From: an uncultured Deferribacteres bacterium
GTDB taxonomy: Bacteria > Zhuqueibacterota > JdFR-76 > DREG01
Assembly (NCBI GenBank): GCA_964464595.1
Contig: CAYXGW010000002.1
Span: 69,408-133,407, forward strand
Length of the DNA: 64,000 nucleotides
Direction of reading: 5' to 3'
Of this stretch, positions 18,197 to 38,551 are shown one piece after another. Position numbers and translations under genes: made by a program. The stretch's first letter is position 1. Each line of letters opens with the position of its first letter. Below the pieces are notes generated by a model. The model saw only the letters and a program-made list of their open reading frames with translations. It had not been told where the DNA came from and did no database searches.

Positions 18197-20836
18197 CTAC
18201 TGATTTCCTTCAGAATCCTGTGTTTTAACAGAATCCTGGGTATTAACAGAATCCTGCGTTTTAACAGAATCTTTAGGCGTTAATTTACTTTGAAAATCTG
18301 ACAGGAGTTGACGCGCCATCTCATCCGTAGGATACTGTTCCAAATATTTGTTCATTAATTCAACTGCTTTCTCGTAATTTTCTGTTCTTTGATAAAAACC
18401 CAACAAAGCTGCATACGCATCTCTAAGTTTGGGATTTCGTTCTATAATCTCCCAAGCCCGCCTTTCCAATTCCTCCGGACGGCCAAGGGTTTCATATAAA
18501 TGTCCAATTGATAAACCGAAGCGGTAATCCGTAAATGGGACATTACTCTCTGGTATTAATTCTTCCATTTTATCCAATGTGGTTAATGCTTTCTCATTAT
18601 CATTTTCGATCCGATAATGATCTGCCAATCGAATAAAGGCAGTACGGTAATTAGTCAGTAATCCCTTTGTTTTATCGTCCAGGTATACTTTTGGATCATT
18701 GAGATTTCGGAATAAAAATTTTTCAAAGAGATTTTCCTGGAGTCTGGTTACCGATATCCGAACGTTGGGATAAGGCAATAATTTGAAGGCCATTCCATCC
18801 ATTCTTAAATAAGATTGCAAGCCAACTTTATTATTATCTCCGACAGTAACAGCGAAATAAATAGGCTTCTTCCATTGATTTGCCGCAATGATATTTAATA
18901 TTGCCAAATCTTGTACTCGAAGGGCTTGTGGTGGGCTGCCAATTGTTGGATTGATTGTAAACTTCATTGAACCTGAGTCCACCAGATCATCTTTCCATTC
19001 TCCCCTGTCCATCATGTTGGTCTTAAATTTATCATAGACCAACTGAGAGATCGGCACTTCATACTCTGTTGGTCCGGGCCAACCCATCAGGCCAATTCTT
19101 TCAATCTGTTGATCGGTATAAGTAAATGGCACTTTTGGTTCCTGGTTTTTAAGTTGCAAAATATACCAGGATGTATTAAGCAGGGAAAGATTCACAATCC
19201 TGATATCCTCCCTTATATGCTTTACGTACTGCAAATACCATAACGGAAAGGTATCATTGTCTCCATTTGTAAAGATAATAGCATTAGGCTCACAAGATTC
19301 GAGAATATTGTATGAATAATCGTAAGGGACAAAATTCCCCCTACGATCATGGGAATCAAAATTAACCAAGAACATATTTATTGGCAGTGCAATCCCTAAA
19401 ATGAAAAGAGTTGCCCAGGTAATGGGTTTAAGCAGTTTGTTTTCTTCGGAGAGAAATTCTCGCAACGACTCAAAAATAGCATAAACTCCAATCCCAATCC
19501 AAATGGCAAATGCAAAGAAACTACCCACGTAAACATAATCTCGCTCTCGTGGCTGTGGATTTTCCTGGTTGAGATAAAATATAATTGCTACACCAGTCGC
19601 GATAAAAAGAGTAAGAACCGAAAATGCATGCATCTTATCTTTACGAAAATGGTAGTAAGCGCCAACGATGCCGGCAATAAATGGAATTCCCAGCAACCCC
19701 TTTAAACTAAACACTTCGATGATATACCCATCAGAACCAATTGTTGTACCCTTACCGATAAACTGCCAGTTAAAATATCGGATGTACATTTTCTGAAACT
19801 GGTAAGCCCAAAACTCGGCTTTTCGATGAAAAATGGTTAGCAAAAGACTTTGTTCACCATATTGCTTCCTCGCCAGGTAATCCATCATACTACTCCATCT
19901 TTCAGGATCATTTTCATCGATCGGCGGATTTAGTCCTGAACGAATATAAATCACAATATAGGTTGAATATCCAATTACAAACAGAATGGGAACAAGCCAC
20001 CACAGTTTAAAAGCCAATTGATCTTTAGCATACAAGTAATATAGTGTTATTGCCAGGGTAACCAATCCCGCGTACTTGAGAAATGTTCCAGCTTTTGCCT
20101 GGTGAGCAAGGAACTGTTCATATCCCATAGACGCAGGGTTATAATTAAAGAACAGGATATACAGAGTAAGTGGAATAAGCGCCTGAAAAAATAAAACCCA
20201 AACTAATTTTTTTGCAGATTCATTTTTTCTAAGGTGAATAATGAATAGCACAAATAGAAAAGTGAGTATATTTAATAAGTGAATTCCAGTAGCCAGGCTA
20301 AACAGATAAACAATTAAAACAAGGTAACTTAAATTCTTATTATCCTCTGAATTATCTCCCCATAAAAGTATAAGCCAGACCACAATTGCAGTAAACAACA
20401 TGCTAATCGCATAAACCTCAGCTTCTACGGCATTGAACCAGAAACTGTCTGAAAATGCGAATGAAAGTGCACCGATAGCTGCGCTGCCAAAGACCAACAG
20501 GCGATCGTAATAATTTTGCGGTTTTCCACGAAACTGGTTGATCAAACGTACGATAATTAAATAAAGGAACATAATGGTTAGTGCACTTGAAAACACCGAC
20601 ATTAAATTTATGCGAAAAGCGATATTACTGATCGGAAGAAATGTAAAAATTCGGCCTAAAAGTATGTAAAGCGGGGCCCCGGGTGGGTGCATCACACTTA
20701 ATGTATAAGAACAAGCTATGAACTCGCCAGCATCCCAAAAAGAAACATCCGGGGCAGCGGTGACTAAATAGACGAAACTCGCAACGATAAGCATTGCGGC
20801 TGCGATCCATCGATTCAATACTTTATTTTGATCCAT
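18197..20836 (-). CDS. DUF2723 (TMEM260-like) multi-TM glycosyltransferase with C-terminal TPR-like region
   Basis: SFWDAGEF, HPPGAPLY, SFWFNAVEAEVY, ERDYVYVGSF, IFTNGDNDTFPLWYLQ. Confidence 0.85.
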   Translation of the reverse strand: MDQNKVLNRWIAAAMLIVASFVYLVTAAPDVSFWDAGEFIACSYTLSVMHPPGAPLYILLGRIFTFLPISNIAFRINLMSVFSSALTIMFLYLIIVRLINQFRGKPQNYYDRLLVFGSAAIGALSFAFSDSFWFNAVEAEVYAISMLFTAIVVWLILLWGDNSEDNKNLSYLVLIVYLFSLATGIHLLNILTFLFVLFIIHLRKNESAKKLVWVLFFQALIPLTLYILFFNYNPASMGYEQFLAHQAKAGTFLKYAGLVTLAITLYYLYAKDQLAFKLWWLVPILFVIGYSTYIVIYIRSGLNPPIDENDPERWSSMMDYLARKQYGEQSLLLTIFHRKAEFWAYQFQKMYIRYFNWQFIGKGTTIGSDGYIIEVFSLKGLLGIPFIAGIVGAYYHFRKDKMHAFSVLTLFIATGVAIIFYLNQENPQPRERDYVYVGSFFAFAIWIGIGVYAIFESLREFLSEENKLLKPITWATLFILGIALPINMFLVNFDSHDRRGNFVPYDYSYNILESCEPNAIIFTNGDNDTFPLWYLQYVKHIREDIRIVNLSLLNTSWYILQLKNQEPKVPFTYTDQQIERIGLMGWPGPTEYEVPISQLVYDKFKTNMMDRGEWKDDLVDSGSMKFTINPTIGSPPQALRVQDLAILNIIAANQWKKPIYFAVTVGDNNKVGLQSYLRMDGMAFKLLPYPNVRISVTRLQENLFEKFLFRNLNDPKVYLDDKTKGLLTNYRTAFIRLADHYRIENDNEKALTTLDKMEELIPESNVPFTDYRFGLSIGHLYETLGRPEELERRAWEIIERNPKLRDAYAALLGFYQRTENYEKAVELMNKYLEQYPTDEMARQLLSDFQSKLTPKDSVKTQDSVNTQDSVKTQDSEGNQ
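18211..18272 (-). repeat. Tandem 18-nt coding repeat (DSV-K/N-TQ) at the DUF2723 C-terminus
   Basis: cagaatcctg(t/g/c)gt(t/a)ttaa at 18211, 18229, 18247 plus partial copy at 18265. Confidence 0.9.
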
Positions 20837-23469: not shown

Positions 23470-24918
23470 TTACCAGGAATATTCAACAGTATATGTCAGC
23501 TTTGTTTCCTTCTTGGCAGGAATATTTATTTTGAATTCGATTGAGCGAGCATCTTTTGCAGAATACTCATGGCTGGAAGCAATTATTTTCCAATTACTAT
23601 TGGTTGCTCGGTATAATAAATTTTCAATGACTGAAATTGCTACAGTTTTAGATTTCCGGTTCTTAATGATTATCTCATAGGATTCACGTAATTGTTGTTT
23701 CCCAATCCTATCCACTCTGATTTGTTTTCGCTCTGCAACCAGATCAAAAGCTGCTCCCATAAGAATCTCAATCCATTCCTGTTCCGGCGTATGTTTTATA
23801 TTGGCTTCACCCAGGAATATGCCGGTATTAGTTTTGTCTTGATATACTCGAAATCTTCCAGCCGGAAATGGAAGCCCCAACGAATTATTTTCATCATTCT
23901 TGAACCGTAAATAAACCTGCAAACGCTGGTCTCTTTCCCTGCTATTCAACACGTACTTTTTAGTAACATCTACACCATCGGCTTTAAACATCCGTATTTG
24001 CTTCAACTGATTATTGCCAATGCTAACAGGCCGGTCAATTCTGTAAAGATGGTATTCAAATTGTTCTTGTTGGGAAACATCCTGTGCGTAACTGGCTTCA
24101 CTGACAGCCATGGTTTTGTATTGTGGGGTCGGCCTTCTGCTTCGAGTTAAATTTAAATCACCGGCAACGACACTAACATTAGCATTTTCGAAATTTTTCC
24201 CGGATTTATTGTCAATACTAATCCAGGCATTAACATCGAGTTGTGTTCCTTCTTCATTCAGAATGGCAACATATTCAGTGGTCCAATTCATTCCATGGGT
24301 CAAATATTCTATTTCAAGCTGATGGGTTTTTTTCTTTTCGCTTTTCACCAACCAGACCAATGTGGGCTTGGTATTTAATCCGTCGGGCAACTTTGGAAAT
24401 TTTATGGAATGAATATCTTTATTTTTGATGAGTGTAATCTCTTCATTTTCATTTGCAAGCAACAAATCCGATCCAGTACTCAATAACTTTCCTTCAATCA
24501 AATTTCCCTTTGAATCGATGAGTTGAATGGTTTGATTGATAAATTTTGACAGCACCTTATTGGATGCAATCAGATCATATTCAAAAAGTTGCTCCAATAT
24601 TGTGAGCGATTTTGGATCATTCAAGGAATGTAAATGCACGGAAGTAGGATCAATCGATTTGGCTACGTCTTCGATCCGAATATTCTGCTCTCCTTTTTCT
24701 AATTGAAAAGAGAAAGTTTGCCGGACCAGGGCAAGGTTCTGGTTATACACAGTTACTGAAACGTTTGAATTTTGAGCAAAAACAAGAATGGCTGGATACA
24801 AGAAGAAAAGGAAAAAGAGTTTTATCAAAAAGAATGAAATTGTTTGCAGAGAACCAAACAATGGCTTATTCACTAAGTGTGGAGTAATTATTTTGCAGTT
24901 TTTCAAGGTTTTCTTCAT
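23470..24918 (-). CDS. DUF4139 domain exported protein (start uncertain, possibly GTG at 24873)
   Basis: VTVYNQNLALVR, FEYDL, KPTLVW, FEYHLY, PFPAGRFRVY; signal-peptide-like N-terminus. Confidence 0.75.
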   Translation of the reverse strand: MKKTLKNCKIITPHLVNKPLFGSLQTISFFLIKLFFLFFLYPAILVFAQNSNVSVTVYNQNLALVRQTFSFQLEKGEQNIRIEDVAKSIDPTSVHLHSLNDPKSLTILEQLFEYDLIASNKVLSKFINQTIQLIDSKGNLIEGKLLSTGSDLLLANENEEITLIKNKDIHSIKFPKLPDGLNTKPTLVWLVKSEKKKTHQLEIEYLTHGMNWTTEYVAILNEEGTQLDVNAWISIDNKSGKNFENANVSVVAGDLNLTRSRRPTPQYKTMAVSEASYAQDVSQQEQFEYHLYRIDRPVSIGNNQLKQIRMFKADGVDVTKKYVLNSRERDQRLQVYLRFKNDENNSLGLPFPAGRFRVYQDKTNTGIFLGEANIKHTPEQEWIEILMGAAFDLVAERKQIRVDRIGKQQLRESYEIIIKNRKSKTVAISVIENLLYRATNSNWKIIASSHEYSAKDARSIEFKINIPAKKETKLTYTVEYSW

Positions 24919-27535
24919 AGGTAATTTTTTTATTACGCTCTTTGTCGATCACCTCTTTGGGAGCGCGATTAATAAAATTTTCATTGGTTAATTTAATATT
25001 GATCTTTTGAATTTGATCTTCAATTCGAACGATTTCTTTTAGCAACCGTTCCTTTTCTTTTTCGATGTCGATTAAACCTTCAAGTGATATATAAAGTTCG
25101 ATCCCGCGAACAACCGCAGATGCGCTCTGCGGCGGCTTTTCAACTTCGGCTCCAATTTTTAAATTCTGGATCCATCCAAGTTCACGTAAATAGTTTTGAT
25201 TTGCTTCCAGCAATTGATACTCGGAATTGGACGTTTTAATAAATGCATTCGCTTTTCTACCCGGCGGGACATTCATCTCTCCACGAATATTTCGAACCGC
25301 GCTGATAACATCTTGAATAAAAACCATTTCCTGATCCTTAGCGCTTGAAACCATTTCCGAAATTTCTTCGGGCCAGGGTGAGATCATTATGCTTTCTTCG
25401 TCAGTATTCGATTTAAGTTTTTGCCATATTTCCTCTGTGATAAACGGAATAACCGGATGCATCAATTTCATGCTGTTTTTTAATATATGAATTGCAATTT
25501 GCATCGGGATTTGCTTGTTCGCATTATTATCCTTGTCGTACAATCTTGACTTGATTAATTCCAGGTACCAATCGCAAAAATCTCCCCAGAAAAACGCGTG
25601 CATCGAATCCATATATTCACTGAACCTGAAATTCTTCAAAGCCTGGGTTATTTTAGGGATTGTTTGCGCATAGCGGCTAAGGATCCAACGGTCTGCCAGT
25701 TCCAGTTTATCTGAATTTTCTTCACAGAATTTTGAAAAATCCAGGTTAAGATCTACACGCTCGGCATTCATCCACAGAAATCGGAATGCATTCCAAATTT
25801 TATTTGAATAATTTCTGCCGATTTCAAAATCGCCTTTGGTCAAATTGATATCATGTCCCTCAACCGACAATGACAATAGAGAATAGCGCACCGCATCGGC
25901 GCTGAACTTTTCGATCATTTCGAGTGGATCGATGCCGTTGCCGAGAGACTTGCTCATTTTCCTGCCATCCGCATCCCGTACAATTCCATTAAAATAAATA
26001 TGATTAAATGGAATCTCTCCTTTGAATTGAAGTCCGGCCATAATCATCCTGGCGACCCAAAAAAAGATAATATCCGGTCCGGTAACCAGCGTTGAAGTCG
26101 GGTAAAAATATTCCTGGTCTTCCGTTTTTTCTGGCCAGCCCATTGTGGAAAATGGCCACAACCAGGATGAAAACCAGGTATCTAAAACGTCGGGATCCTG
26201 ATTAATATTGTTTTTGCCACATTTCGAACAAATCTCCGGTGCTTCCCTCAAAACCATCATCTGATTACAATCCTGGCAATAATACACCGGAATCCTATGC
26301 CCCCACCAGAGTTGCCTGGAGATACACCAATCACGGATGTTTTTCATCCAGTTTTCATACACGCCAATCCAGCGAGTGGGCAGTATTTGAATATCGCCAT
26401 CCTGAACAGCTTTCAATGCGGGATCGGACAGGGGCTTAATTTTCACGAACCATTGCTCGGACAAGCAAGGCTCAATGACAGTATTACACCTTTGGCAATG
26501 ACCAACCGAATGAACATGTTTCTCAATTTTCTCTAACAACCCCTGTGATTTCAACGCCTTAACCAGTCTCTTTCGAGCCTCAAACCTGTCCATCCCATCA
26601 TAGGGACCAGCTTTCACATTCATCTTGCCATCAGGACTGATTACGATAATAGCGGGCAGATTATGACGATGGCCTAGCTCGAAATCATTGGGATCGTGCG
26701 CTGGTGTAATCTTAACAGCGCCAGTACCCAAAGTCCTGTCAACAGCTTCGTCTGCAACAATAGGCAGCTCCCGGTTCAAAATGGGTAAAATAGCAGTTTT
26801 ACCGATGAATTTTGTGTATCGTGTATCGTCCGGATGCACCGCTACGGCTGTATCACCCAACATGGTTTCGGGCCGGGTAGTCGCTACAATGATTGAATGT
26901 TTGGAATCCTTAATCGGGTAATGAATATACCAAAGAGAGCTCTCGCGATCTGAGTGATTGACTTCTTCATCTGAAATCGCAGTCTGACAGCGGGGACACC
27001 AATTAATGATATACTTGCCACGATAAATCAGACCCTTCTCGTAGAGTTGAACGAAGGCCTCGATAACCGCTTTGGACATGTCTTCATCCATGGTGAATTT
27101 GGTGCGGGACCAATCACAGGAAAAACCAAGCTTTCTTAATTGCTTGAGGATAATATCCCCGTGTTTTTCCCGCCATTGCCAGACCGTTTTCACAAATTTT
27201 TCCCTGCCCAGGTCATGCCGGGAAAGACCCTGTTCTTTCTTGAGTGACCGTTCTACGACAGTTTGTGTGGCGATACCAGCGTGGTCGGTACCGGGAAGCC
27301 AAAGCGCATTATACCCCAGCATACGATAAAATCGGGTTAAAATATCCTGGATGGTGTTGGTAAATGCATGCCCTATATGCAGCCGGTCGGTGACATTAGG
27401 AGGTGGAATCACAATTGTAAAGGGCTTCTTGGCTGGATCGGGATCCGCTTTAAAGTATCCGGAATTTTCCCAATTAGAATATACCCTGTCTTCTACTTGT
27501 TTAGGGTCGTAATGCTTTGAAATCTCTTCTCGCAT
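24866..27535 (-). CDS. valS: Valine--tRNA ligase
   Basis: PPPNVTDRLHIGHA, DHAGIATQ, WCISRQLWWGHRIP, DVLDTWFSS, KMSKS. Confidence 0.98.
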   Translation of the reverse strand: MREEISKHYDPKQVEDRVYSNWENSGYFKADPDPAKKPFTIVIPPPNVTDRLHIGHAFTNTIQDILTRFYRMLGYNALWLPGTDHAGIATQTVVERSLKKEQGLSRHDLGREKFVKTVWQWREKHGDIILKQLRKLGFSCDWSRTKFTMDEDMSKAVIEAFVQLYEKGLIYRGKYIINWCPRCQTAISDEEVNHSDRESSLWYIHYPIKDSKHSIIVATTRPETMLGDTAVAVHPDDTRYTKFIGKTAILPILNRELPIVADEAVDRTLGTGAVKITPAHDPNDFELGHRHNLPAIIVISPDGKMNVKAGPYDGMDRFEARKRLVKALKSQGLLEKIEKHVHSVGHCQRCNTVIEPCLSEQWFVKIKPLSDPALKAVQDGDIQILPTRWIGVYENWMKNIRDWCISRQLWWGHRIPVYYCQDCNQMMVLREAPEICSKCGKNNINQDPDVLDTWFSSWLWPFSTMGWPEKTEDQEYFYPTSTLVTGPDIIFFWVARMIMAGLQFKGEIPFNHIYFNGIVRDADGRKMSKSLGNGIDPLEMIEKFSADAVRYSLLSLSVEGHDINLTKGDFEIGRNYSNKIWNAFRFLWMNAERVDLNLDFSKFCEENSDKLELADRWILSRYAQTIPKITQALKNFRFSEYMDSMHAFFWGDFCDWYLELIKSRLYDKDNNANKQIPMQIAIHILKNSMKLMHPVIPFITEEIWQKLKSNTDEESIMISPWPEEISEMVSSAKDQEMVFIQDVISAVRNIRGEMNVPPGRKANAFIKTSNSEYQLLEANQNYLRELGWIQNLKIGAEVEKPPQSASAVVRGIELYISLEGLIDIEKEKERLLKEIVRIEDQIQKINIKLTNENFINRAPKEVIDKERNKKITYEENLEKLQNNYSTLSE

Positions 27536-27698
27536 AACTCGTACTATTCACCCGCAGTTTGTGTTTAATTATAAAATAATGGCAACTAATATAGAATAAT
27601 TCAATAGCTAAATCAATTATATGTTGGTGGATGGAACGGAGGGATACCTTAATTGGATATAATCAACTTATCATGAACTGGAATTCCCTTTGGAATGA

Positions 27699-27730
27699 TA
27701 TTTAATTCAAGCGTAAGTACACTCTCGTGA
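27699..27730 (+). repeat. Left copy of 32-bp imperfect direct repeat flanking the four-gene cassette
   Basis: tatttaattcaagcgtaagtacactctcgtga; 28/32 identical to 33517-33548. Confidence 0.8.
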
Positions 27731-27782
27731 TTATAATATGTAATAGACGATAAACATTTTAAAGTTGATTACAAATTTTCTC

Positions 27783-27811
27783 TTGACTTTATTAATCCAC
27801 CAAGATACTTT
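27783..27811 (+). promoter_or_regulatory. Possible sigma70 promoter for the cassette
   Basis: TTGACT-N17-TACTTT; motif match only. Confidence 0.3.
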
Positions 27812-28059
27812 CAAGTAAACAAAATTTAGGAAAACCTGGGGTTCTCCATGTCCAATTGGAAACACAGATTACTAAATTTAGAATTTTTCCATTATTCTAT
27901 CGGATTTGGGATGGTTATACATGAGGCAATGAAATGCTGGAGGACAATTGGAACAGGGAGCTGAAAGTCTGGGAATTGCCATTTGAGAAGGTTAAACAAT
28001 TGAGATTGACCAAAAAACTTATGAATAAACCAAAACCAATAGCCTTTATTTAGGAAGAT

Positions 28060-28695
28060 ATGAATAATAAATTAATTGTAAAGGATTGTAGCCTATGCTC
28101 GGCCTTACACGATAAAGATGAGTTCAAAAAACCCGATCGACATTATAACTTCAAATTATTTCAAGATAAGTTTTTCACTATACTGCCAAGTATTGGCCCA
28201 TTAGAACTCGGCCACGTGATGGTTGTAAGTCAGTACCATAAGATGAACTTGGCTTCAATGGGAGTACAATTGCTCAGTAAGTATGACCGACTCATTAATG
28301 GTATTCGAAATAAATATAGCCTTTATCATACCGACCTGCTTGAAGCTGAACATGGTCCTGTAGAAACAAATAGTGCAGGTTCTTGTATTATTCACACTCA
28401 CATTCACTTAATTCCTAACTGTGGTAAATTCGAAAATATTTTTGATGATAAGCTTGATAAAATTCTCATTACTAAAAATATTGAAGATATTGCAGAAATA
28501 ACAAAACCTTATATTTTCGTCCGAGGAAGGTCACAAACAATTATTATTTATGATGCTAACGATGTCCCTTCACAATATATTAGAAGAATCATTTGCAAGA
28601 ATGAAGAAAGAGAGGATTGGGATTGGGCCGTTTTTCCACATAATGACATAATTTTAGAAACTATAAATTATTGGCGTTCTCAGACTTCAAAATGA
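28060..28695 (+). CDS. HIT-superfamily (Cwf19/CwfJ-like) nucleotide hydrolase/transferase
   Basis: CSLC, PSIGPLELGHVMVV...H, EHG, canonical triad HTHIHLI, SQYIRR, WDW. Confidence 0.7.
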   Translation: MNNKLIVKDCSLCSALHDKDEFKKPDRHYNFKLFQDKFFTILPSIGPLELGHVMVVSQYHKMNLASMGVQLLSKYDRLINGIRNKYSLYHTDLLEAEHGPVETNSAGSCIIHTHIHLIPNCGKFENIFDDKLDKILITKNIEDIAEITKPYIFVRGRSQTIIIYDANDVPSQYIRRIICKNEEREDWDWAVFPHNDIILETINYWRSQTSK

Positions 28696-29738
28696 CTTCA
28701 AAATTTGATCCAGATTCTATTCACAATTGGGTGTCTTCTCTTTTTGCGAATTCGAAACAAGATTCATGTATAATTGCGAGTATCAACGATGATGATTGTG
28801 CAGTTATACGATTATTCAACAATTACATTATTGTCACAACCGACTATCTTAATGCTAGACCTATCGCCATTGAACTAGGGGTAGGAGGCTTTTGGGATTT
28901 GGGCAGACTAGTAGTTGCTTCTAACTTATCAGACCTTTGTGGAAGTGGTGCAAAGCCATTTGCGTTACTAACTTCAATAATGATGAAAAGAACTAGAAAT
29001 CGTATGGATTTTGAACAGTTAATGAAAGGAGTCAAATTTGAATTAGAAAAATATGATGTGCCTTTGATTGGGGGCGATACCAAGTTAGGCGATTCAACTG
29101 CAATTCTTGGTGTAGGTATTGGTATTGCTTCAGATATATCAAACCTTTTTTTAAGAAACAGCGCACAAGCCAAAGACATTTTGTGGTGTTCAGGTTATTT
29201 AGGCTCAATGAGTGCGGCAGTATTGGCAATGAATAGCAACAGAATTTCAAAAGGGTTGAAAAGTTGGGCAAAGAATGTGATTATTGAACCCCGAATCCCA
29301 ATAAACCTTTCCCAACAGATATCAGCTTCAGGGTTTGCCAACGGAGGAACTGACGTAAGTGATGGCCTTGGGAATGATCTATTAAGGTTATGTGAGGCAA
29401 GTAAAGTCGGAGTTATAATCAACGCTGACCAAATCCCAATTGAACCAGAAGCGATTGAGATTGCCAAAAAGTTAAATCTAAAACCATGGTTCTTAGCGTT
29501 TGGATTAGGTGGAGATTTCCAATTTATTGTGAGTACGAAAAATGACAGAAAATACTATAATAAGATAATACAAATGGGCTTTCACCAAATTGGTGAACTT
29601 ACTTATAAGCCTGATTGTTTAGTTAAACTCACAGACAATACATTATTAAAGATGCCAACAATTGGACATCGAGACGCTAGAAACCTAAGTTTTTCTAATG
29701 AACTAATGGAAATATTAAGCACAATACAAACGAATTAG
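28692..29738 (+). CDS. ThiL-like (PurM-fold) kinase, divergent
   Basis: DDDCAV, TTDYL, SNLSDL, LIGGDT, DVSDGL; ATGA overlap with upstream stop. Confidence 0.75.
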   Translation: MTSKFDPDSIHNWVSSLFANSKQDSCIIASINDDDCAVIRLFNNYIIVTTDYLNARPIAIELGVGGFWDLGRLVVASNLSDLCGSGAKPFALLTSIMMKRTRNRMDFEQLMKGVKFELEKYDVPLIGGDTKLGDSTAILGVGIGIASDISNLFLRNSAQAKDILWCSGYLGSMSAAVLAMNSNRISKGLKSWAKNVIIEPRIPINLSQQISASGFANGGTDVSDGLGNDLLRLCEASKVGVIINADQIPIEPEAIEIAKKLNLKPWFLAFGLGGDFQFIVSTKNDRKYYNKIIQMGFHQIGELTYKPDCLVKLTDNTLLKMPTIGHRDARNLSFSNELMEILSTIQTN

Positions 29739-29740
29739 GA

Positions 29741-30985
29741 ATGGTTACAATAGACCAAATTTCAAATGCTCAAGCGCGAATTATTGAGCTAATAAATGTT
29801 CAGTGTTCCCAGGGTGCACAATTAGACTCACTTCCTGACGGCACGTCTGCTTGTGGCCAATTCTTTGGAGATAAAGCTGAAAAACTTAAACAAAGAGGAA
29901 TATATGGGACATCAGCGGCAATTAGGTTGCTAACATATCGCGAGGACGATCTATCGTATAACTTGGTGCGTAAATTAATATCCTATCTACAAATTCGGTT
30001 TAAATCTGAATTAAGAGATTCAAAACATAAAGAACTGACTAAAATTACTCACGATGGCGAAAGCGATGAACACAATGTCATTAAATTATCTGAAATATTG
30101 TTCTCTCTCTCGTTTGTAAAACCGGCTATTTGCAATACTGAGGAGTTCAAAACTAATCTATCCAAACGTTTGCTTGCTGGAATGATTGATAACCGCGGGT
30201 GGGCACATTTTTCGGATTCACCGAATTCAAGAATAGAACTTTTACCCACAGCATACGCCGTTCAAGCTCTTATGGCTAATGGCTATCGACTAAAATTAGA
30301 CAAAGCTTTGAAGTATTTGGAGGAGAGATTAAAGCAGATCTTTCTAGAAAGTTTTTCGAGTGAACAAACAGATATTTCTATCTATATTTTCTGTCTTTAT
30401 GTGTTAGTTTTTTTAGAAGATGAGCTTGATAACCATAAAAGGGATTTATATTTGAAAGAACTCAAACCTTTGTGGAGAATCTTAGAGCCTCTATTTAATT
30501 TCGATCTAGAACAGAATATCGAATATTGGTATGCAAACGACAATTTTTATGTAAGAGTACCTTGGCAGATATACTTCATTGCAATATCATATCAATTGGC
30601 TCCTTTGAAGATATTTGGCTCCTCGGTAGTTCAAAGAAGATTGCAATCTATTTTAAATGATGTTTTAAACGATGGTTTTAAGTATCCTCATTCTGGAATT
30701 ATGTTGTCAACTAGAACGAACGCAATTTTGTTCGATATTTTGGGAATTATTAAAAAAAGTTATAACCGATCTATCGGATTTGTTATCTATAATTTATTTG
30801 ATCGAGCCAGAAATCTCCTTAGCAGGCCTAGTTTTACATATGCTGGATACTTAGCTTCGGTGATTTTGGCTAGTATTTCTATTTATCAATGGTTAGCAAA
30901 ATCCGCTTCATTAGGTGACCTAGCTCCCGAGTTTCTTGGTGCAATATTAATTGCACTATTCTCTTCTAGGAAAGCACGTAAATAA
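29741..30985 (+). CDS. Hypothetical alpha-helical protein (prenyltransferase/terpene-cyclase-like toroid, tentative) with two C-terminal TM helices
   Basis: GQF...GIYGTSAAIRLL and DNRGWAH...LPTAYAVQAL repeats; hydrophobic YAGYLASVILASISIYQWLA and LAPEFLGAILIALFS at the C-terminus. Confidence 0.5.
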   Translation: MVTIDQISNAQARIIELINVQCSQGAQLDSLPDGTSACGQFFGDKAEKLKQRGIYGTSAAIRLLTYREDDLSYNLVRKLISYLQIRFKSELRDSKHKELTKITHDGESDEHNVIKLSEILFSLSFVKPAICNTEEFKTNLSKRLLAGMIDNRGWAHFSDSPNSRIELLPTAYAVQALMANGYRLKLDKALKYLEERLKQIFLESFSSEQTDISIYIFCLYVLVFLEDELDNHKRDLYLKELKPLWRILEPLFNFDLEQNIEYWYANDNFYVRVPWQIYFIAISYQLAPLKIFGSSVVQRRLQSILNDVLNDGFKYPHSGIMLSTRTNAILFDILGIIKKSYNRSIGFVIYNLFDRARNLLSRPSFTYAGYLASVILASISIYQWLAKSASLGDLAPEFLGAILIALFSSRKARK

Positions 30986-30993
30986 GGCTGTTT

Positions 30994-33447
30994 ATGGAAT
31001 TTAAGGACATACTTTATGGCAGGATTATAATTCCAGACTGGATGTTACCATTCTTAAGAATCCCTGAATTCGTGCGTCTCAGGGGTGTTAGACTTTCTAA
31101 TGTCGATTCTATTCAGTACAAGGATTTCAACGGCCCAACTCGTTGGGATCATAGCATTGCAGTAGCAGCATTAGCATTGCGGTGCGCAGAAAAGCGTGGT
31201 CTTTCAAGAAAACAAAAAATAGAACTTTCATTGGCAGCGCTTCTTCATGATATTGCTTCACCACCATTTGCACATTCTATCGAATACGTCGTTGAAAACT
31301 ACAACCATGAATTGGAGGCTCAAAAGATTCTGAGTGCGATAACATCAAAGGACTCAGAACCTAATATTCCTATCTTCGCTTCTCAGGTGCCGCAATTCTT
31401 TAAGTCTTGCGAAAAGCTCTCTATTGATACTGGGATTAATATTGATCCAATACAAGTTGCAAAGCTGATTGTGGGGGATTCTGACTTGGGTTTTCTTATC
31501 AACGGCAGCCTTGATTTAGACAACGCGGACAATGTGACAAGAGCATGCCTTTTTCTGGGAATCGAAGTGGATAAAAACGTTCCCCTGCAACTTGCTGATT
31601 GGCTTGCCCAACAGAAACATGTTCCAATTGAATTGGAAATGGTAAAAAATGAGGCCGTTAGAAAGTGGTTTGGTTATCGAAAAAAATTATATCTTGAGTT
31701 CTATAACGCGTCAGATGATGAGCTTGGAAGAGAGGCGTTCTTACAACATCTAGTCCGTAAAGCCCGTTTGGCAGGCTTATCTAGGCAAGCTATAATCTGG
31801 AAAACAGATGAATCACTTTTATTCGCGATTGAGAACCTACAAGAAGAAACCACAAACAACACCAAGTCCACTCTCAAACATTTGGTTCAAAGGTATCGTT
31901 TACTCGAACAAACTTTCAAAATTAGCCAAATTGAAATAACCGATGAAGATCAACTTCGTATACTTCAAACACCTCAAGCTTCAAATTGGATAGAACAACA
32001 ACTATCTACTAATTCCTTTGAACCCTTTGTTTTAGTTAAATCTTTAAGACATGCAACCGATGAGCAAACCGCATCGGATTTGTTTCCAGTTAGTCCAGGT
32101 GTTTTGATTGTGTTTAAATTAACTGACAGCTTAAGATACAAGCAACTTCCAGATTGGTTGCAAGAAGGAATTCCTCAAAGTACAGTTGGGAAGAGTTTAC
32201 GGAAATATTTCACAAATGAAATAAGAAAAATAATCCCAAAGTGGGTCAACTGCAAACCGTGGATTGATACGAGCGCTGAAAGAAAGGATAATGTTCTTGA
32301 AAACCTCTCTAGTTTTGGGAACTGGAGTTTCCATTTGTCGAGAAATGAAAGTATTCACGCATATCCAAGCACATTTGTACATACAATTCCTGCAAGTTTT
32401 ATAAGTGCATTAGGTCTTCGAGGAGAACTCATTTTGGATCCTTTCGGAGGAACCGGCCAAACTGCAGTCGAAGCAATAAAATCCGGGTGCGAAGTTATAT
32501 CATCAGATTCAAACAGAATTGCAGCCTTGATTGCAAAAACTAAACTCTCTTACCTTAATTCAGTGAACCGTAAAAAACTTCGAAAAATATCATTGGATGA
32601 TATCGAGCGCATCGAATGTTTTAAAAAACCAAATTTTCACTTGATAGATAAATGGCATCACAAAGATACCTTTGAAGAATTATGCCGGATTCGGGCATTT
32701 ATAGAAATTCAACAAAACGTACTCTTGAAACAATTCTTAAAAACGAGCTTTTCATCAATCTTGACCTCAACCACAGCAAGGCGAGGTGAGGAGTCTAGTT
32801 ATTTTGCTGATAATACTCCGTTAGCAACAAATGTGGATTCTCCACCATATCATAATGCCATTAGGTTTTTCATTGATAGAATTAATAGAAACCTTAATGT
32901 TTTAGAAAGATTTTACTCATTTATCGAGAGAAACGGAAAGAACCCCGCAGATGAATTAAAACGTGCAAAAGTATTCAATTTTGATGCGAGACATTTGAAA
33001 GCGAAAGAGCTTAAGATAGAGGAAAAATCTATTGCCGGAATAATAACATCCCCTCCTTACTTGTGTATGTCCGATTATACGCTTGGATTACGATTGTCAT
33101 ATTATTGGCTCGAACCTGAATGTTTACAAAAGGATTTCGAAAGAGAAATTGCAGCAAGAAGGCAACGTTTCCGACCAGAGGAGGCATTGGATAATTATCT
33201 AAAAGATTTAGATACTTTTGCGTCAAATGTAACTAAACTTCTGAAATTGGGTGGTTTTCTGGCAATTGTTTTAGCTTCCCCAGAGGCGAGAGCATTCAAG
33301 AAACAAGACATAATTCAAGCAGTCGACGACATATTCTCTAGACATTCTTTGAATAGCTTGTGGTCTCAATGGCGACCAATAAGTTGGCATCGCAAAGGTT
33401 ATCAAAGATTAAAGGAAGAAAGACTTACAGTTTACACTTTAGAGTAA
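30994..33447 (+). CDS. HD-domain phosphohydrolase (SAMHD1/dGTPase-like) fused to N4C/N6A-type amino-methyltransferase
   Basis: PEFVRLR, TRWDHS, LLHDIASPPFAH, DLDNAD in the N-terminal part; HAYPSTF, ILDPFGGTG, ITSPPY in the C-terminal part. Confidence 0.8.
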   Translation: MEFKDILYGRIIIPDWMLPFLRIPEFVRLRGVRLSNVDSIQYKDFNGPTRWDHSIAVAALALRCAEKRGLSRKQKIELSLAALLHDIASPPFAHSIEYVVENYNHELEAQKILSAITSKDSEPNIPIFASQVPQFFKSCEKLSIDTGINIDPIQVAKLIVGDSDLGFLINGSLDLDNADNVTRACLFLGIEVDKNVPLQLADWLAQQKHVPIELEMVKNEAVRKWFGYRKKLYLEFYNASDDELGREAFLQHLVRKARLAGLSRQAIIWKTDESLLFAIENLQEETTNNTKSTLKHLVQRYRLLEQTFKISQIEITDEDQLRILQTPQASNWIEQQLSTNSFEPFVLVKSLRHATDEQTASDLFPVSPGVLIVFKLTDSLRYKQLPDWLQEGIPQSTVGKSLRKYFTNEIRKIIPKWVNCKPWIDTSAERKDNVLENLSSFGNWSFHLSRNESIHAYPSTFVHTIPASFISALGLRGELILDPFGGTGQTAVEAIKSGCEVISSDSNRIAALIAKTKLSYLNSVNRKKLRKISLDDIERIECFKKPNFHLIDKWHHKDTFEELCRIRAFIEIQQNVLLKQFLKTSFSSILTSTTARRGEESSYFADNTPLATNVDSPPYHNAIRFFIDRINRNLNVLERFYSFIERNGKNPADELKRAKVFNFDARHLKAKELKIEEKSIAGIITSPPYLCMSDYTLGLRLSYYWLEPECLQKDFEREIAARRQRFRPEEALDNYLKDLDTFASNVTKLLKLGGFLAIVLASPEARAFKKQDIIQAVDDIFSRHSLNSLWSQWRPISWHRKGYQRLKEERLTVYTLE

Positions 33448-33516
33448 GTTACAATGTGGTACAGAATGTTCAGCCAAAATAGCCGAACAATTGAGGTGCT
33501 TTCACTTTATTTCGAG

Positions 33517-33548
33517 TATTCAATTCAAGAGCAAGTACACACTCGTGA
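33517..33548 (+). repeat. Right copy of 32-bp imperfect direct repeat
   Basis: tattcaattcaagagcaagtacacactcgtga; internal dyad TCAAGAG-N10-CTCGTGA. Confidence 0.8.
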
Positions 33549-33714
33549 ATGTTCTTGCCACATAACAAGCCATACTATACATTTAGGAGCAATCAAAACC
33601 AGAGGCTACAGATCTGTTTTTATACGATTTCTAAATTATCGGCTACCTCTGCGCCGAATATTTCAGGTTAAGGTACTAAAAAAACATTCTTATCAAATAG
33701 TATGGAGGTAAAAA

Positions 33715-34089
33715 GTGAAAGTTTTGGGAATTCGATTTTGTACGGTTTCAAAAGAAGGGAAAGAACTGTCTGATTTCTTGAAGGATGGTTTGGGTCTGCC
33801 AACATTATTCGGCGATGGTACGGATAGCGAGTCTGAGTCAAAAGAATTCCGTGGCAATGTATTTCCAGCCGGCACAAGCTGGATTGAGGTCTGGCCCGAG
33901 GGGCCGGAAATGCCGGAGGGTATTATGCTGCAGATCGTGGTGGACAATGCTGATAAATGGGCCGAGCAAGCCAAAGCCAACGGACTTACCCCCTACGGCC
34001 CCACGGATGCTCACGGCGAGCGCATCTACTACTTGCAAGCGCCGACTGGTTTGGCCATAAGCTTTCAGTCCAAATTGACGCAGGAATAA
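33715..34089 (+). CDS. VOC/glyoxalase family protein
   Basis: GGAGGT RBS + GTG; FLKDGLGL, SWIEVW, LQIVVDNAD, PTDAHGERIYYLQAPTG. Confidence 0.7.
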   Translation: MKVLGIRFCTVSKEGKELSDFLKDGLGLPTLFGDGTDSESESKEFRGNVFPAGTSWIEVWPEGPEMPEGIMLQIVVDNADKWAEQAKANGLTPYGPTDAHGERIYYLQAPTGLAISFQSKLTQE

Positions 34090-34129
34090 TATTTGGTCGT
34101 GTTTTTTTCAATCTAACAAATAATTTTGC

Positions 34130-34158
34130 TTGACTAAAGCAAATCAATAAGGTATCTT
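34130..34158 (+). promoter_or_regulatory. Possible sigma70 promoter of the NHL-repeat gene
   Basis: TTGACT-N17-TATCTT about 65 nt upstream of ATG 34224. Confidence 0.4.
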
Positions 34159-34223
34159 GCGCGTAAAGTTTGACAAAATTTCCACAGAATTTTTATATCA
34201 ACCCATCATTAAAGGTGAGCGTC

Positions 34224-35210
34224 ATGGCACTCAAAGCCGCTTTAATAATTGTTTCATTTTTCGCTTTTCCATATGAATCAATTGCCCAAACCAATCCCTA
34301 TAACATTGTTGAGAACTGGGCCAAGCTCCCCCTGGGCAGACCCTGGGGAGCGACGAGCGCGGTGTATCCTGCCAGTAACGGCAATTTATGGGTAGCCGAG
34401 CGATGCGGACAAAACAGCTGTATCGGAAAAGAGGATGTCCCTCCCATCCTCCTGTTCGATCCTGCCGGGAAACTGCTGAAAAGCTTTGGCGCAGGATTGT
34501 TGGTCTGGCCGCATGGGATTAATGTGGATAAAGACGGTAATGTCTGGATAGCCGATGCCCGGGGAGAAGACGGAAAAGGCCACCAGGTTTTGAAGTTTAG
34601 CCCGGATGGAGAGCTGTTGATGTCACTAGGCAAAGCCGGAGTCGCCGGCGAAGACCGGGATACTTTCAATGCGCCATCTGATGTTTTGGTTGCTCCCAAT
34701 GGCGACATTTTTGTTGCAGACGGCCACTGGGTCGATGGCAATAATCGCATTGTGAAGTTTTCCGGCGAGGGGAAATTCATTATGGCATGGGGAAAAACCG
34801 GATACGGTCCCGGTGAGTTTCGCGACCCCCACGCGCTCGCAATGGATTCCCAGGGCCGCCTGTTCGTCGGTGACCGGGCAAACAGCCGGATCCAACTCTT
34901 CGACCAGGAAGGAAACTACATTACTACCTGGACGCAATTTGGCCGGCCGAGTGGAATTTTTATTACCAAAGATGATGTCATTTACGTGGCTGATTCAGAA
35001 TCAAATACGCGACGAAATCCCGGCTGGAAAAGGGGCATCCGGATCGGCAGCGCCAAAAGCGGCTGGGTTACGGCTTTCATTCCTGATCCTGAACCGGACC
35101 AGGATAATTCCGGCACCAGCGGAGCCGAAGGCATTGCAGCTGATTCAAAAGGTAACTTGTACGGAGCAGAAGTCGGTCCACGGAAGTTGACTAAATATGT
35201 GAAGAAATAG
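34224..35210 (+). CDS. Peptidyl-alpha-hydroxyglycine alpha-amidating lyase-like NHL-repeat beta-propeller, exported
   Basis: PHGINVDKDGNVWIAD, FNAPSDVLVAPNGDIFVADG, FRDPHALAMDSQGRLFVGDRANSRIQ; signal peptide. Confidence 0.85.
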   Translation: MALKAALIIVSFFAFPYESIAQTNPYNIVENWAKLPLGRPWGATSAVYPASNGNLWVAERCGQNSCIGKEDVPPILLFDPAGKLLKSFGAGLLVWPHGINVDKDGNVWIADARGEDGKGHQVLKFSPDGELLMSLGKAGVAGEDRDTFNAPSDVLVAPNGDIFVADGHWVDGNNRIVKFSGEGKFIMAWGKTGYGPGEFRDPHALAMDSQGRLFVGDRANSRIQLFDQEGNYITTWTQFGRPSGIFITKDDVIYVADSESNTRRNPGWKRGIRIGSAKSGWVTAFIPDPEPDQDNSGTSGAEGIAADSKGNLYGAEVGPRKLTKYVKK

Positions 35211-35366
35211 CCACGGTTTTTTGCTGACATCCACAAGTTCTGGACAGCCAAGGGGAACCCATAAGAAAATTCAATCGATGATTTTTTTGATTAAGGGAAA
35301 TATTATCATTATACTTTGGGTTGACAAAAAAGACCTGAACCACATTGCATTAAAGGATGGCTAAAG

Positions 35367-35492
35367 TGAGTTCGACATAACACGGCTATAAGCAAAATAT
35401 TAATATATAATAAGCCTTCGACTCCGCTCAGGCTGCTAAATTAAGCCATGGTGAGCGGAGTCGAACCATGAATGTCCATTATATCGAACTCA
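35367..35492. repeat. Nested inverted-repeat element (REP/MITE-like)
   Basis: Outer IR tgagttcgacataa (35367-35380) / ttatatcgaactca (35479-35492), 13/14; inner perfect 14-bp IR ttcgactccgctca (35417-35430) / tgagcggagtcgaa (35452-35465). Confidence 0.75.
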
Positions 35493-35529
35493 GCTTAACA
35501 AAACACTTTTTGATTGCGTAGATTACAAA

Positions 35530-36576
35530 ATGGAAAGAATAATAAACAGGTTCAAGAACAAGCGCAAACAAGATTATTTAACGATCGAGTATGCTAACGA
35601 GTACGCTTTTGTCGGAATCGGCAACCACAGCATTTATAATTTGTACCCTGTTTTGGATCATCTACGAGTTCCGGTCAAATATATTGTTACACACAGCCAG
35701 GAAAACGCTGCTTTGATTGATACACATTTCCCGAACGTAATTGGAACCAATGATGTCGGGAAAGTACTTTCTGACAGCAATATAGCCGGGGTGTTTGTTT
35801 GTACAAACCCAAAGAGTCATTTTGATCTTATCAAGCAAATTCTTGCAAGGGATAAAAGCGTATTTGTTGAAAAGCCGCCCTGCCAAAATTTGGCAGAATT
35901 ACAGGAATTAATTGAAATTGAAACCCAATCAAAAGGATTTTGCCTAGTTGGAATGCAAAAGAGATATGCACCCATCAATAAACCAATTAATAAAAAAGTA
36001 TCCCGGATAATTTCGTATCATTATCGATATCTTACCGGTCTTTATCCGGAAGGAGATTCACTACTGGATTTATTTATTCATCCCCTCGATCTTATCAGTC
36101 ATTTGTTCGGAGATTACACCATTGAATCCCAACAAGCTGCATTTCCAGCTTCCAATAAAAATTCAAAGTCTATATTTTTGCATTTAAAGCACGATACTAT
36201 TATTGGAAATATTGAACTCTCAACAAATTATTCCTGGGCATCGGCGGAAGAATCGTTGGAGATAAACACAGAAAAGGGCATTTTTAAATCAACCAATTTG
36301 GAAAATTTAACTTTCGAGAATAAAAGCAATCAATTCCTTAATGTCCCCCTGGAGAAAATCAAAGAATTTAATCAGAGTTCGACGACTTTGTTTAATCAAA
36401 ATTCTTTCATGCCGACATTAAAACATAATGAACTTTATACAAAAGGTTATTATATTGAAGTAAAGACATTTATCGATCTTTGCGAAGGACAAAAAGCGGA
36501 CAATTTATCATCTTTAAGCAGTTTGATTAAAACGTACAATACTATTCAACAAATAAAAAAAGAACATTATGTATAA
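35530..36576 (+). CDS. Gfo/Idh/MocA family oxidoreductase
   Basis: YAFVGIGNH, VFVCTNPKSHF, VFVEKPPC, VGMQKRYAP, DLFIHPLD. Confidence 0.85.
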   Translation: MERIINRFKNKRKQDYLTIEYANEYAFVGIGNHSIYNLYPVLDHLRVPVKYIVTHSQENAALIDTHFPNVIGTNDVGKVLSDSNIAGVFVCTNPKSHFDLIKQILARDKSVFVEKPPCQNLAELQELIEIETQSKGFCLVGMQKRYAPINKPINKKVSRIISYHYRYLTGLYPEGDSLLDLFIHPLDLISHLFGDYTIESQQAAFPASNKNSKSIFLHLKHDTIIGNIELSTNYSWASAEESLEINTEKGIFKSTNLENLTFENKSNQFLNVPLEKIKEFNQSSTTLFNQNSFMPTLKHNELYTKGYYIEVKTFIDLCEGQKADNLSSLSSLIKTYNTIQQIKKEHYV

Positions 36577-37798
36577 TACCAAAGATTACATTACCAGGGG
36601 TGTAAAATTTGCTAATAATATTTTACTGCCCGGACACAAGAAACTTTCTACTTTGATGATTTACGGCACAGATTTATGTGATTCAGGATGCAAGCACTGT
36701 TTAATTTGGGCAAAAAGGCCTACTGTACATTTGCCTTTAGAAAAAATCATTGAAATCATGAACAGCAAATGCGTAAGCAAAAGCACAACTGTCGGTTTGG
36801 AGGGTGGAGAATTTCTATTGCATCCTGAAGCGACAGAAATTCTTCAATGGTTTTCGGCAAATCATCCTAGGTTTGATTTATTATCAAATTGCCTTAAGCC
36901 AGAGGGTGTCATTGAGGCCGTAAAGGAATATCCCCCCAGTAGATTATATCTCTCTTTAGACGGAGATAAAGAAACTTACAAATATATGCGGGGGAAAGAC
37001 GGCTATGATAATGTGCTGCACGTAATTGAAGAGTGCAGGAAACTTGTACCCATTTCAGCAATGTTTACTCTTTCTCCGTATAACGATTTCGACGATTTAG
37101 AGCATGTTATTAAAGTATGTCAAAAATATGATATAGATGTGAGAGTCGGGGTTTATAGCAATATTGCTTTTTTTGATACGCTGGATAAAGCCCACGAAAC
37201 TGATATATCCACTAAAGTTGATACCCATATGTTAAAATACAAGGAAGTAAAACATTTGGTACAGGGCGGAACATCAACATTGAATACTGAAATAAATGTG
37301 GTGGAAAGAGAAAATATTAACATCCCAATTCACGATGAAGAAAAAATTATAAGCTCAAACTCATTTAAAAGCTCCGTCCCGGACATTGTAAAAGAAACGG
37401 CTGAAAATTATGATTTTCTCTTACTTTACGATGAGTGGCGTAAGAAAAATACAAAACTAAAGTGCTTCAGTATTTTGGATAGTATCATCGTACTACCCAA
37501 TGGAGACGTACCAATCTGTCAGAATCTTGATTTAAAACTTGGAAATATTTATGAAAAACCACTTGATGAGGTATTTAATTCTGCTGCCTCTCAAAATACC
37601 CAAAAAGAGTATGTGCACAACTGCAACCAGTGTTGGATCAATTTTCATAGAAAATATGATATTGTTATGATGAGATCGATGGAGAAGGTTATGCCTAAAT
37701 GGGTTGTGGAAAAACTCTTCGGACAATATCAATGGTCTGACGATCCTAACATAACATATGATAAGTTTATGAAAAAATACGATGGCTCCAGGAATTAA
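36569..37798 (+). CDS. Radical SAM protein with SPASM/twitch-like C-terminus
   Basis: CDSGCKHC (CX3CX2C), GLEGGEFLLHP, SLDG, C...PNGDVPIC...LGNI...CNQCW; overlaps upstream stop. Confidence 0.9.
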   Translation: MYNTKDYITRGVKFANNILLPGHKKLSTLMIYGTDLCDSGCKHCLIWAKRPTVHLPLEKIIEIMNSKCVSKSTTVGLEGGEFLLHPEATEILQWFSANHPRFDLLSNCLKPEGVIEAVKEYPPSRLYLSLDGDKETYKYMRGKDGYDNVLHVIEECRKLVPISAMFTLSPYNDFDDLEHVIKVCQKYDIDVRVGVYSNIAFFDTLDKAHETDISTKVDTHMLKYKEVKHLVQGGTSTLNTEINVVERENINIPIHDEEKIISSNSFKSSVPDIVKETAENYDFLLLYDEWRKKNTKLKCFSILDSIIVLPNGDVPICQNLDLKLGNIYEKPLDEVFNSAASQNTQKEYVHNCNQCWINFHRKYDIVMMRSMEKVMPKWVVEKLFGQYQWSDDPNITYDKFMKKYDGSRN

Positions 37799-38134
37799 TT
37801 TGAGAGACCACTTGATAAAACGTTAGATAATCTTCATTAGAGCTGAAAAATGATTCGAATAAACAATTTACTAGCCAGGAATTTAGATATGATAGCTTCT
37901 GGCGTTTTTATAGATAGCTAATGATTTAATATTTTACACTATTTCACGCCCCCTTTAACCCATTAAAATAACTTTTCCTACATCCAATCTATCCCTGAAT
38001 TACGTTGTTCAAACCATTTACGAAACTAATATCTAAAATGAGTTGTTATAGATGACATTGATTTTAGAATTTGGAATTTATGATATTTACTTTAGTGAAG
38101 AGTTGGACGTGAACATCATTCGAAAGGAGAAAAC

Positions 38135-38551
38135 ATGATCGGGAAAAATATAAAAATAGGCTTCATGATTCTATTATTTACTATTGTCTTCTATTCTTGC
38201 AGCAATGATTCCAGTACAGGACCTCAGAATCCAACGGTAATTACCAGCGCTACTTTCAGCTTTATTCAATCAGAACTTTTCACTCCAACTTGCGCAACCT
38301 CTGGCTGCCATAATGGATTTGAACGACCAAATCTTACCAGTGGAAATGCTTATAATAATATTCTGAATGTCCAAAGCACTCGAACCTTGGATTATATTGA
38401 ACCTGGCAATCCTGATAACAGTTATTTATTTCGGAAATTAACAGGAGTAAGTATCTCGGGAAGCCTCATGCCAAGACGTGGATCTGCACTTTCAGCCCCG
38501 GTTATTGATTCAATACGAGTATGGATCGAAAATGGAGCGCTCAATAATTGA
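38135..38551 (+). CDS. Small lipoprotein with CX4CH putative haem-binding motif
   Basis: GGAG RBS; lipobox FYSC; CATSGCH; IEPGNPDNSYLFRKL...MP...IRVWIENGA. Confidence 0.65.
   Translation: MIGKNIKIGFMILLFTIVFYSCSNDSSTGPQNPTVITSATFSFIQSELFTPTCATSGCHNGFERPNLTSGNAYNNILNVQSTRTLDYIEPGNPDNSYLFRKLTGVSISGSLMPRRGSALSAPVIDSIRVWIENGALNN

Follow-up and report, generated by a model that had tools for sequence, protein, structure and literature searches.

A 32-base direct repeat around an acquired four-gene operon beside valS in a KSB1 bacterium: a possible insertion scar

The locus described here lies in a 64-kb stretch of DNA (referred to in the following as the window) from contig CAYXGW010000002.1 of an uncultured bacterium, which is assigned to candidate division KSB1. 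It comprises an operon of four genes, located between valS and a gene for a protein of 124 amino acids (aa), and an imperfect 32-base direct repeat, whose two copies R1 and R2 are found in the intergenic regions on either side of the operon (524 and 267 nucleotides (nt), respectively). The repeat pair is real and its similarity non-random, and what it flanks is a genuine cargo module that was acquired. As for its origin, we tentatively consider the repeat to be the duplicated core of an insertion site of the attL/attR type, which would now persist as a decayed scar of the operon insertion; we assign this interpretation a probability of about 0.4. The coordinates of all features are compiled in Table 1.

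Table 1. Features of the locus, in window coordinates
Feature	Position	Strand	Remarks
valS	24866..27535	-	conserved left anchor of the hotspot
valS promoter-like element	27588..27616	-	TTGATT-17-TATATT, within block 27579-27625
Segment without homology to the closest relatives	27628..33689		6,062 nt, versus a 1,028-nt PIN_3-HicB segment (L002 9908..8881)
Repeat copy R1	27699..27730	+	TATTTAATTCAAGCGTAAGTACACTCTCGTGA; 71 nt inside the left homology breakpoint, 329 nt 5' of gene 1
Gene 1	28060..28695	+	211-aa HIT-family (HxHxH) protein
Gene 2	28692..29738	+	ThiL/PurM-like (AIRS) ATP-dependent enzyme; 348 aa as called in L001
Gene 3	29741..30985	+	414 aa, no family match; modeled alpha/alpha-toroid fold
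Gene 4	30994..33447	+	817 aa; HD phosphohydrolase (dNTPase-like) fused to an N6/N4 DNA methyltransferase
Repeat copy R2	33517..33548	+	TATTCAATTCAAGAGCAAGTACACACTCGTGA; 69 nt 3' of the gene 4 stop, 141 nt inside the right breakpoint
Promoter-like pair	33555..33583	+	TTGCCA-17-TACATT (sigma-70-like, consensus match only), 6 nt beyond R2
124-aa gene	33715..34089	+	conserved right anchor; 90% nt identical to a relative

The operon and its flanking repeats

The four genes are encoded on the plus strand and tightly packed, with an overlap of 4 nt followed by gaps of 2 nt and 8 nt. The overlap is formed by the ATG of gene 2 and the stop codon of gene 1, and the longest open reading frame (ORF) of gene 2 starts further upstream, with a TTG at 28671. 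In a structure model of the gene 3 product (mean predicted local distance difference test score, pLDDT, 90.6), an alpha/alpha toroid ends in long helices; together with a hydrophobic C-terminal sequence, these final helices of the model suggest that the protein is membrane-anchored. Its homologs are scarce, with about 38 representatives among 5.8 billion clustered proteins, all of them at 42% identity or less.

The gene order recurs at 28-55% identity, and always in unrelated neighborhoods, in at least 16 genomes that belong to many phyla. The hosts include Verrucomicrobia, Binatia, Terriglobia, Planctomycetota, Bacteroidota, Balneolaceae and a betaproteobacterium, and the homologous loci are numbered L008-L013, L023-L036, L045 and L056 in our collection. 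Some variants are incomplete: one from Desulfobaccales lacks gene 2, and an actinobacterial one lacks gene 4 while keeping genes 1 and 3. Since an operon conserved at this level in so many phyla points to horizontal acquisition, we regard it, on the basis of these comparisons, as a conserved, patchily distributed and horizontally acquired unit. Its composition is mildly atypical, with a tetranucleotide z-score of 1.2-2.3 and a G+C content of 0.36-0.37 in a window that ranges from about 0.34 to 0.41, and a tblastn search found gene 3 in no plasmid or phage record. PADLOC detects just a generic methylase in the operon, which is not among the systems this tool covers. We infer a role in defense or DNA modification; the operon may constitute an undescribed system of either kind.

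An earlier note on the window had proposed that an imperfect 32-base direct repeat brackets exactly these four genes, with both copies being intergenic, and this proposal was borne out. R1 and R2 are in direct orientation on the same strand and identical in 28 of 32 positions, which corresponds to a divergence of 12.5%. As the space between the repeats and the four genes contains only uncalled ORFs of up to 85 aa, the repeats do bracket these genes; the longest of these ORFs (33454-33711) overlaps R2 and has no Pfam match. The longest exact run common to both copies spans 8 nt, and the central 8 nt, AAGTACAC, are identical in the two, with GTAC on the axis of a putative dyad. Their similarity has a sharp edge at the 3' side and decays on the 5' side, where the earlier note had seen a continued likeness of the form ttcMcttt. 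This likeness is real, with seven of eight positions matching between 27684-27691 and 33501-33508, but it is weak and offset by 1 nt between the copies.

Several comparisons set the pair apart from the background. R1 and R2 are the sole sites in the window for a degenerate 27-mer with up to three mismatches (none expected), all other matches in a permissive scan with the 32-mer are at noise level (24/32 or less), and no other non-tandem direct pair in the 64 kb attains 28 of 32 matches. When the two intergenic regions are aligned locally, exactly the 32-mer is returned, with a score of 44; shuffled sequences score 20.7 +/- 2.6 and at most 29. Likewise, when 82 segment pairs with this geometry were taken from the window, only the one holding R1 and R2 scored 37 or more, followed by a runner-up at 31. 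Finally, both copies are also found in an independent Logan assembly of a public run (L001, from SRR9822615), so the pair is not an assembly artefact.

Nevertheless, one may ask whether the repeat has any function at all, or whether its similarity arose by chance in A+T-rich intergenic sequence, or was left over from an unrelated patchwork recombination in a hotspot, and had no part in the arrival of the operon. There are only two copies of only 32 nt, the finding was selected after the whole window had been read, and although none of 12 windows simulated with a first-order Markov model contained a pair with 28 of 32 matches, their best pairs reached 25-27, so that the observed value is beyond noise but not far beyond it. 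Against this stands the position of the pair: of all non-tandem matches in the window, the best one is located precisely in the two intergenic regions bordering the cargo, and we estimate the joint chance of match and placement, analytically from base composition and region sizes, at about 1e-6 to 1e-4. Taken together, we find this explanation unlikely.

The other operon loci bear on this question, too. When 17 loci were tested for bracketing repeats, a signal was obtained only for the host window (z 8.9) and for two others, L029 and L036. In the first of these, a metagenome-assembled genome of Sedimentisphaerales, the operon homolog lies between two 136-nt copies (4591-4726 and 10798-10933) with about 80% identity. 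The upstream copy is located inside an ORF of 303 aa, while the downstream copy stands isolated next to a DNA methylase gene; given the location of the former, the latter is probably a fragment of a paralog. That an operon homolog can also be flanked by a fragmentary repeat, in this case a gene fragment, favors coincidence. In the second, Hymenobacter sp. CRA2, a gapped direct repeat of 62 nt (4664-4725 and 11102-11164) flanks the operon homolog at a distance. One of its copies forms the leader of a minus-strand gene, and its score is near background, being reached by about 1% of random segment pairs.

A variable site next to valS

The closest relatives of the host, with a valS that is 94% identical at the protein and 93.6% at the DNA level, have been recovered from many samples. 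Instead of the operon, all close relatives have a PIN_3-HicB toxin-antitoxin pair in the space from valS to the 124-aa gene, and it follows that this site is a variable hotspot. In the sequences of L002, where the pair occupies 9058-9722, and of L003, L007 and L017-L019, PIN_3 has 142 aa, and HicB comes in two variants of 76 aa or 79 aa.

Homology between the window and its relatives ends at about 27627 and sets in again at about 33690, some 25 nt ahead of the GTG start codon of the 124-aa gene, so that both repeat copies are part of the differing segment. On the left side, 11 nt separate the valS promoter-like element from the start of the variable segment upstream of it. The block around this element (27579-27625) is conserved even in relatives with a valS identity of just 67-69% (L014 and L015) and constitutes a fixed left edge. 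A more distant relative has a DUF72 gene alone between valS and a glycosyltransferase gene, and the interval bounded by these two genes (about 27.5-39.3 kb) differs between every pair of relatives examined. As judged from these genome comparisons, this interval is a hotspot of variable gene content. The earlier note had spoken of a mobile cargo module delimited by the repeats; that the module is a discrete one is supported both by the conservation of the operon as a unit and by the alternative cargo at this hotspot.

A second segment specific to the window follows the NHL-repeat gene (35366-38299). It encodes an oxidoreductase of the Gfo/Idh/MocA type and a radical SAM/SPASM enzyme, and the relative with the 94% identical valS has about 440 nt in this place. 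No direct repeat flanks this segment (score 22, which equals background), and no repeat of 18 nt or more surrounds the PIN-HicB segment of the relatives.

With 0.45-0.49, the G+C content of the 124-aa and NHL-repeat genes (33715-35210) exceeds that of the window (about 0.36). Neither gene is present in the more distant relative L015, and in L016, their homologs are 8.5 kb apart, with accessory genes in between. These two genes may themselves have been acquired. Elsewhere in the window (1540-1662 and 18211-18271), two minus-strand genes have 18-nt in-frame tandem repeats at their 3' ends, which encode the acidic tail of an S1-like protein and KTQDSV repeats in a membrane protein of 879 aa, respectively.

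Possible identities of the repeat

In all sequences searched, the repeat is confined to the host. It has no copy in the close relatives, including, in many samples, the region upstream of their orthologous 124-aa gene, and is absent from 61 other loci, while exact-pattern scans for the repeat gave no match in public genome, metagenome and viral contig collections. Mapping to Logan contigs missed the second 32-nt copy itself and is hence blind to other short copies. In the sequences compared here, the repeat thus occurs only together with the operon, and as no relative carries it, it does not represent an ancestral element in the regulation of the flanking genes.

The earlier note had further described an internal dyad in each copy, and this description mostly did not hold. 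The proposed 7-nt arms (TCAAGMG and CTCGTGA) are complementary in five of seven positions in R1, a value equaled by 68% of random 32-mers from the window, and in six of seven in R2 (17%). With arms of 9 nt, R2 reaches 8/9, which is matched by 2.8% of random sequences, and R1 6/9. The dyad is therefore at chance level in R1 and above it in R2 alone. It does not give rise to a stable hairpin, as neither strand folds better than its own shuffles (z +0.6 to -1.1), with minimum free energies of -1.1 to -5 kcal/mol.

The most obvious functional alternative, also raised in the earlier note, is a shared cis-regulatory site, i.e. an operator, an activator site or an UP-like element, through which a regulator encoded elsewhere would couple the operon and the downstream 124-aa gene in their expression. 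Both copies are indeed located upstream of plus-strand genes, they share the identical center around GTAC, the 9-nt arms of R2 form a dyad that is rarely found by chance, and R2 is followed after 6 nt by a promoter-like pair of hexamers that, by its sequence, may be the promoter of the 124-aa gene in the host genome. Yet, no equivalent promoter pair follows R1, the R1 dyad is unexceptional, and the distances to the respective start codons are unequal (330 nt and 167 nt). Moreover, the region upstream of the orthologous 124-aa gene is a different one in all relatives and lacks the motif, no third copy, even a degenerate one, is present in the 64 kb, and there is no regulator gene within or beside the operon. 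Nor does a similar motif adjoin 17 other operon copies, which also speaks against a cis element of the operon family. The operator proposal is thus unsupported, and we deem a regulatory role of the repeat improbable.

We also considered and rejected a range of other identities. For a known structured RNA, there is no Rfam match at gathering scores, and permissive matches are at chance level (E >2). A hairpin or terminator is at odds with the folding results and the lack of a T-run, and the same low stabilities, which are like those of shuffled sequences, leave no stable subterminal hairpins as expected for the ends of IS200/IS605 insertion sequences or of palindrome-associated transposable elements (PATE). 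A coding remnant does not fit, with open stretches of 39 aa at most, no start codons on the minus strand and a similarity that is confined to the repeat. An integron attC site would need a GTTRRRY core site, which is missing, as are a fold beyond that of shuffles and an integrase in the window. Dispersed repeats, such as repetitive extragenic palindromes (REP), miniature inverted-repeat transposable elements (MITE) or uptake sequences, are not compatible with only two copies in 64 kb at low stringency and none in the 61 loci. By eye, the repeat fits none of the consensus sequences of attC sites, IS200/IS605 ends, REP/MITE, uptake sequences, dif/Xer sites or sigma-54 promoters. Finally, an exact 22-mer from the unique spacer 3' of R2 reappears in an unrelated metagenome contig (L062, 1516-1537); the match does not extend any further, and we judge it to be due to chance.

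A proposed insertion scar and its alternatives

The interpretation we favor is that the repeats are the scar of an insertion. According to this scenario, a circular copy of the four-gene operon of about 5.8 kb would have recombined with a matching short site on the chromosome, located in the spacer between the divergent promoters of valS and of the 124-aa gene. This would have duplicated the 32-mer at the junction and produced the attL/attR geometry, with the recombinase being supplied in trans from a gene outside the 64-kb window. The two copies would then have drifted apart in four of 32 positions, and today, they probably represent an inert scar rather than a working site. Of these steps, we infer the duplication at insertion, the circular intermediate and the involvement of a recombinase.

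Several observations are consistent with this model. The pair is highly non-random and precisely placed, the repeat accompanies the cargo and is missing from the relatives, and the cargo itself is a self-contained operon of patchy distribution within a variable interval. Two direct copies of a putative core are found at the ends of the insert, in the intergenic regions that flank it, and when one repeat and the operon are deleted in silico, a plausible divergent-promoter spacer of 361 nt remains. Att cores often have a sharp edge on one side and decay on the other, and the similarity between R1 and R2 has the same form. Furthermore, the neutral divergence from the sister lineage at fourfold degenerate sites amounts to 17% for valS and 27% for the 124-aa gene; as the two copies have not diverged more than this, the data are consistent with a perfect duplication after the split of the lineages.

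The same geometry, however, would result from a homology-driven insertion of the RecA or Campbell type, in which an operon on a circular molecule or plasmid undergoes a single crossover in a short identical stretch of the spacer, without any dedicated recombinase. This mechanism has been considered for the wzy locus of Salmonella Typhimurium (PMC12074656), where a cargo of 2.6 kb lies beside thrS, between direct repeats of 113 bp and without a local integrase. It is also compatible with the divergence of the copies, which may originally have been perfect, and with the lack of a visible recombinase in the window. RecA-dependent exchange, on the other hand, requires about 23-27 bp of perfect identity (PMC12074656), so that 32 bp are at its lower limit; the present copies share no more than 8 nt in a row, and the donor must already have carried this very spacer sequence. 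Joining two copies that had never been identical would have been possible only for a site-specific enzyme. In any case, 8 consecutive shared bases fall short of what RecA needs, which makes a present-day excision by homology unlikely and the site probably inert. On balance, we consider homology-driven insertion a rather remote option, and a trans-acting site-specific recombinase the more likely agent of the two.

Beyond this geometry, the Salmonella locus, with attL(wzy) and attR(wzy), resembles ours in its small cargo, its intergenic direct repeats, the lack of a local integrase and the aminoacyl-tRNA synthetase gene in the neighborhood (PMC12074656). The differences are equally clear: its repeats are perfect, its deletion boundaries coincide with them and its circle was detected by polymerase chain reaction (PMC12074656), whereas our repeats have 32 bp at 88% identity, and neither a deletion form nor a circle was seen in assembled contigs.

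A number of results weigh against a scar. We found no recombinase or transposase among the ORFs of the window, which were read by eye from a length of 150 aa upwards, or 110 aa within 20-42 kb, and scanned with profiles between 28 and 39 kb. The window contains no tRNA or tmRNA that could be the target. The weak dyad has arms separated by 10 bp, whereas the core site of a recombinase has inverted binding arms around an overlap of 6-8 bp. The comparison with relatives goes part of the way towards what the earlier note had named as a refutation of att sites, an empty site whose junction does not coincide with the repeat: the homology breakpoints lie 71 nt and 141 nt outside of the repeats, although the site in the relatives is occupied and not empty. 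An empty site with one copy is found in none of the relatives; all have PIN-HicB and no repeat, and the scar model requires that, in them, the PIN-HicB segment took the place of the entire ancestral spacer. In the sole metagenome with the strain, represented by just two runs (X1 and X2), the assembled Logan contigs, which drop rare variants, contain no deletion or circle junction and no alternative contig. Lastly, 16 other copies of the operon have no comparable bracketing repeat. The repeats as att sites, the first proposal of the earlier note, are hence not supported by these results, and it is as a decayed scar that we find the att interpretation plausible.

Known mobile elements provide further points of reference. 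Integrase-less cis-mobilizable elements (CIMEs) and pseudo-staphylococcal cassette chromosome (pseudo-SCC) elements, with their attL and attR sites, are likewise recombinase-less cargo between short direct repeats. Each of their repeats is a copy of a defined attB at the end of a conserved gene (a tRNA gene, fda or rlmH), and cognate recombinases and empty sites exist. The site in our host, by contrast, is a non-conserved intergenic spacer, for which neither a recombinase nor an empty site was found. Integron cassettes, too, are free of recombinases and separated by directly oriented sites, and they often contain toxin-antitoxin or defense genes; they resemble the locus in being recombinase-free cargo with such flanking sites. 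An attC site has the architecture RYYYAAC...GTTRRRY in a foldable palindrome of 57-141 nt, with intI nearby. The host locus differs in that it has a single cassette with a four-gene operon and a long leader, no attC architecture and no intI.

The minimal mobile elements of Neisseria are similar in another respect: at one and the same site, their conserved flanks enclose alternative, unrelated cassettes in related strains, without mobility genes (PMC1797815, PMC3787668), often restriction-modification or toxin-antitoxin systems (Saunders and Snyder 2002, via PMC1797815). At our locus, valS and the 124-aa gene are likewise conserved, with either the operon or PIN-HicB in between. Such cassettes are exchanged via flanking homology and do not need a bracketing repeat; they fit the hotspot, not the 32-mer.

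A bolder version of the recombinase scenario is conceivable, in which an integrase-less 5.8-kb cassette is moved into and out of a 32-bp att-like site by a recombinase encoded elsewhere in the KSB1 genome. This would amount to a capture system without attC architecture that stocks the valS-proximal hotspot with defense-type modules, with the operon being an undescribed nucleotide-centered defense or DNA-modification system; we consider this version very improbable.

Defense-type modules are often found in hotspots without mobility genes, and the route by which they arrived is rarely clear. If the repeats are a scar, they would constitute the record of one insertion event in an uncultured phylum, and the trans-acting recombinase would be worth seeking; if not, the locus would be an ordinary variable hotspot. 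The more solid and reusable results are the conserved four-gene operon and the variable interval between valS and the glycosyltransferase gene in KSB1 genomes.

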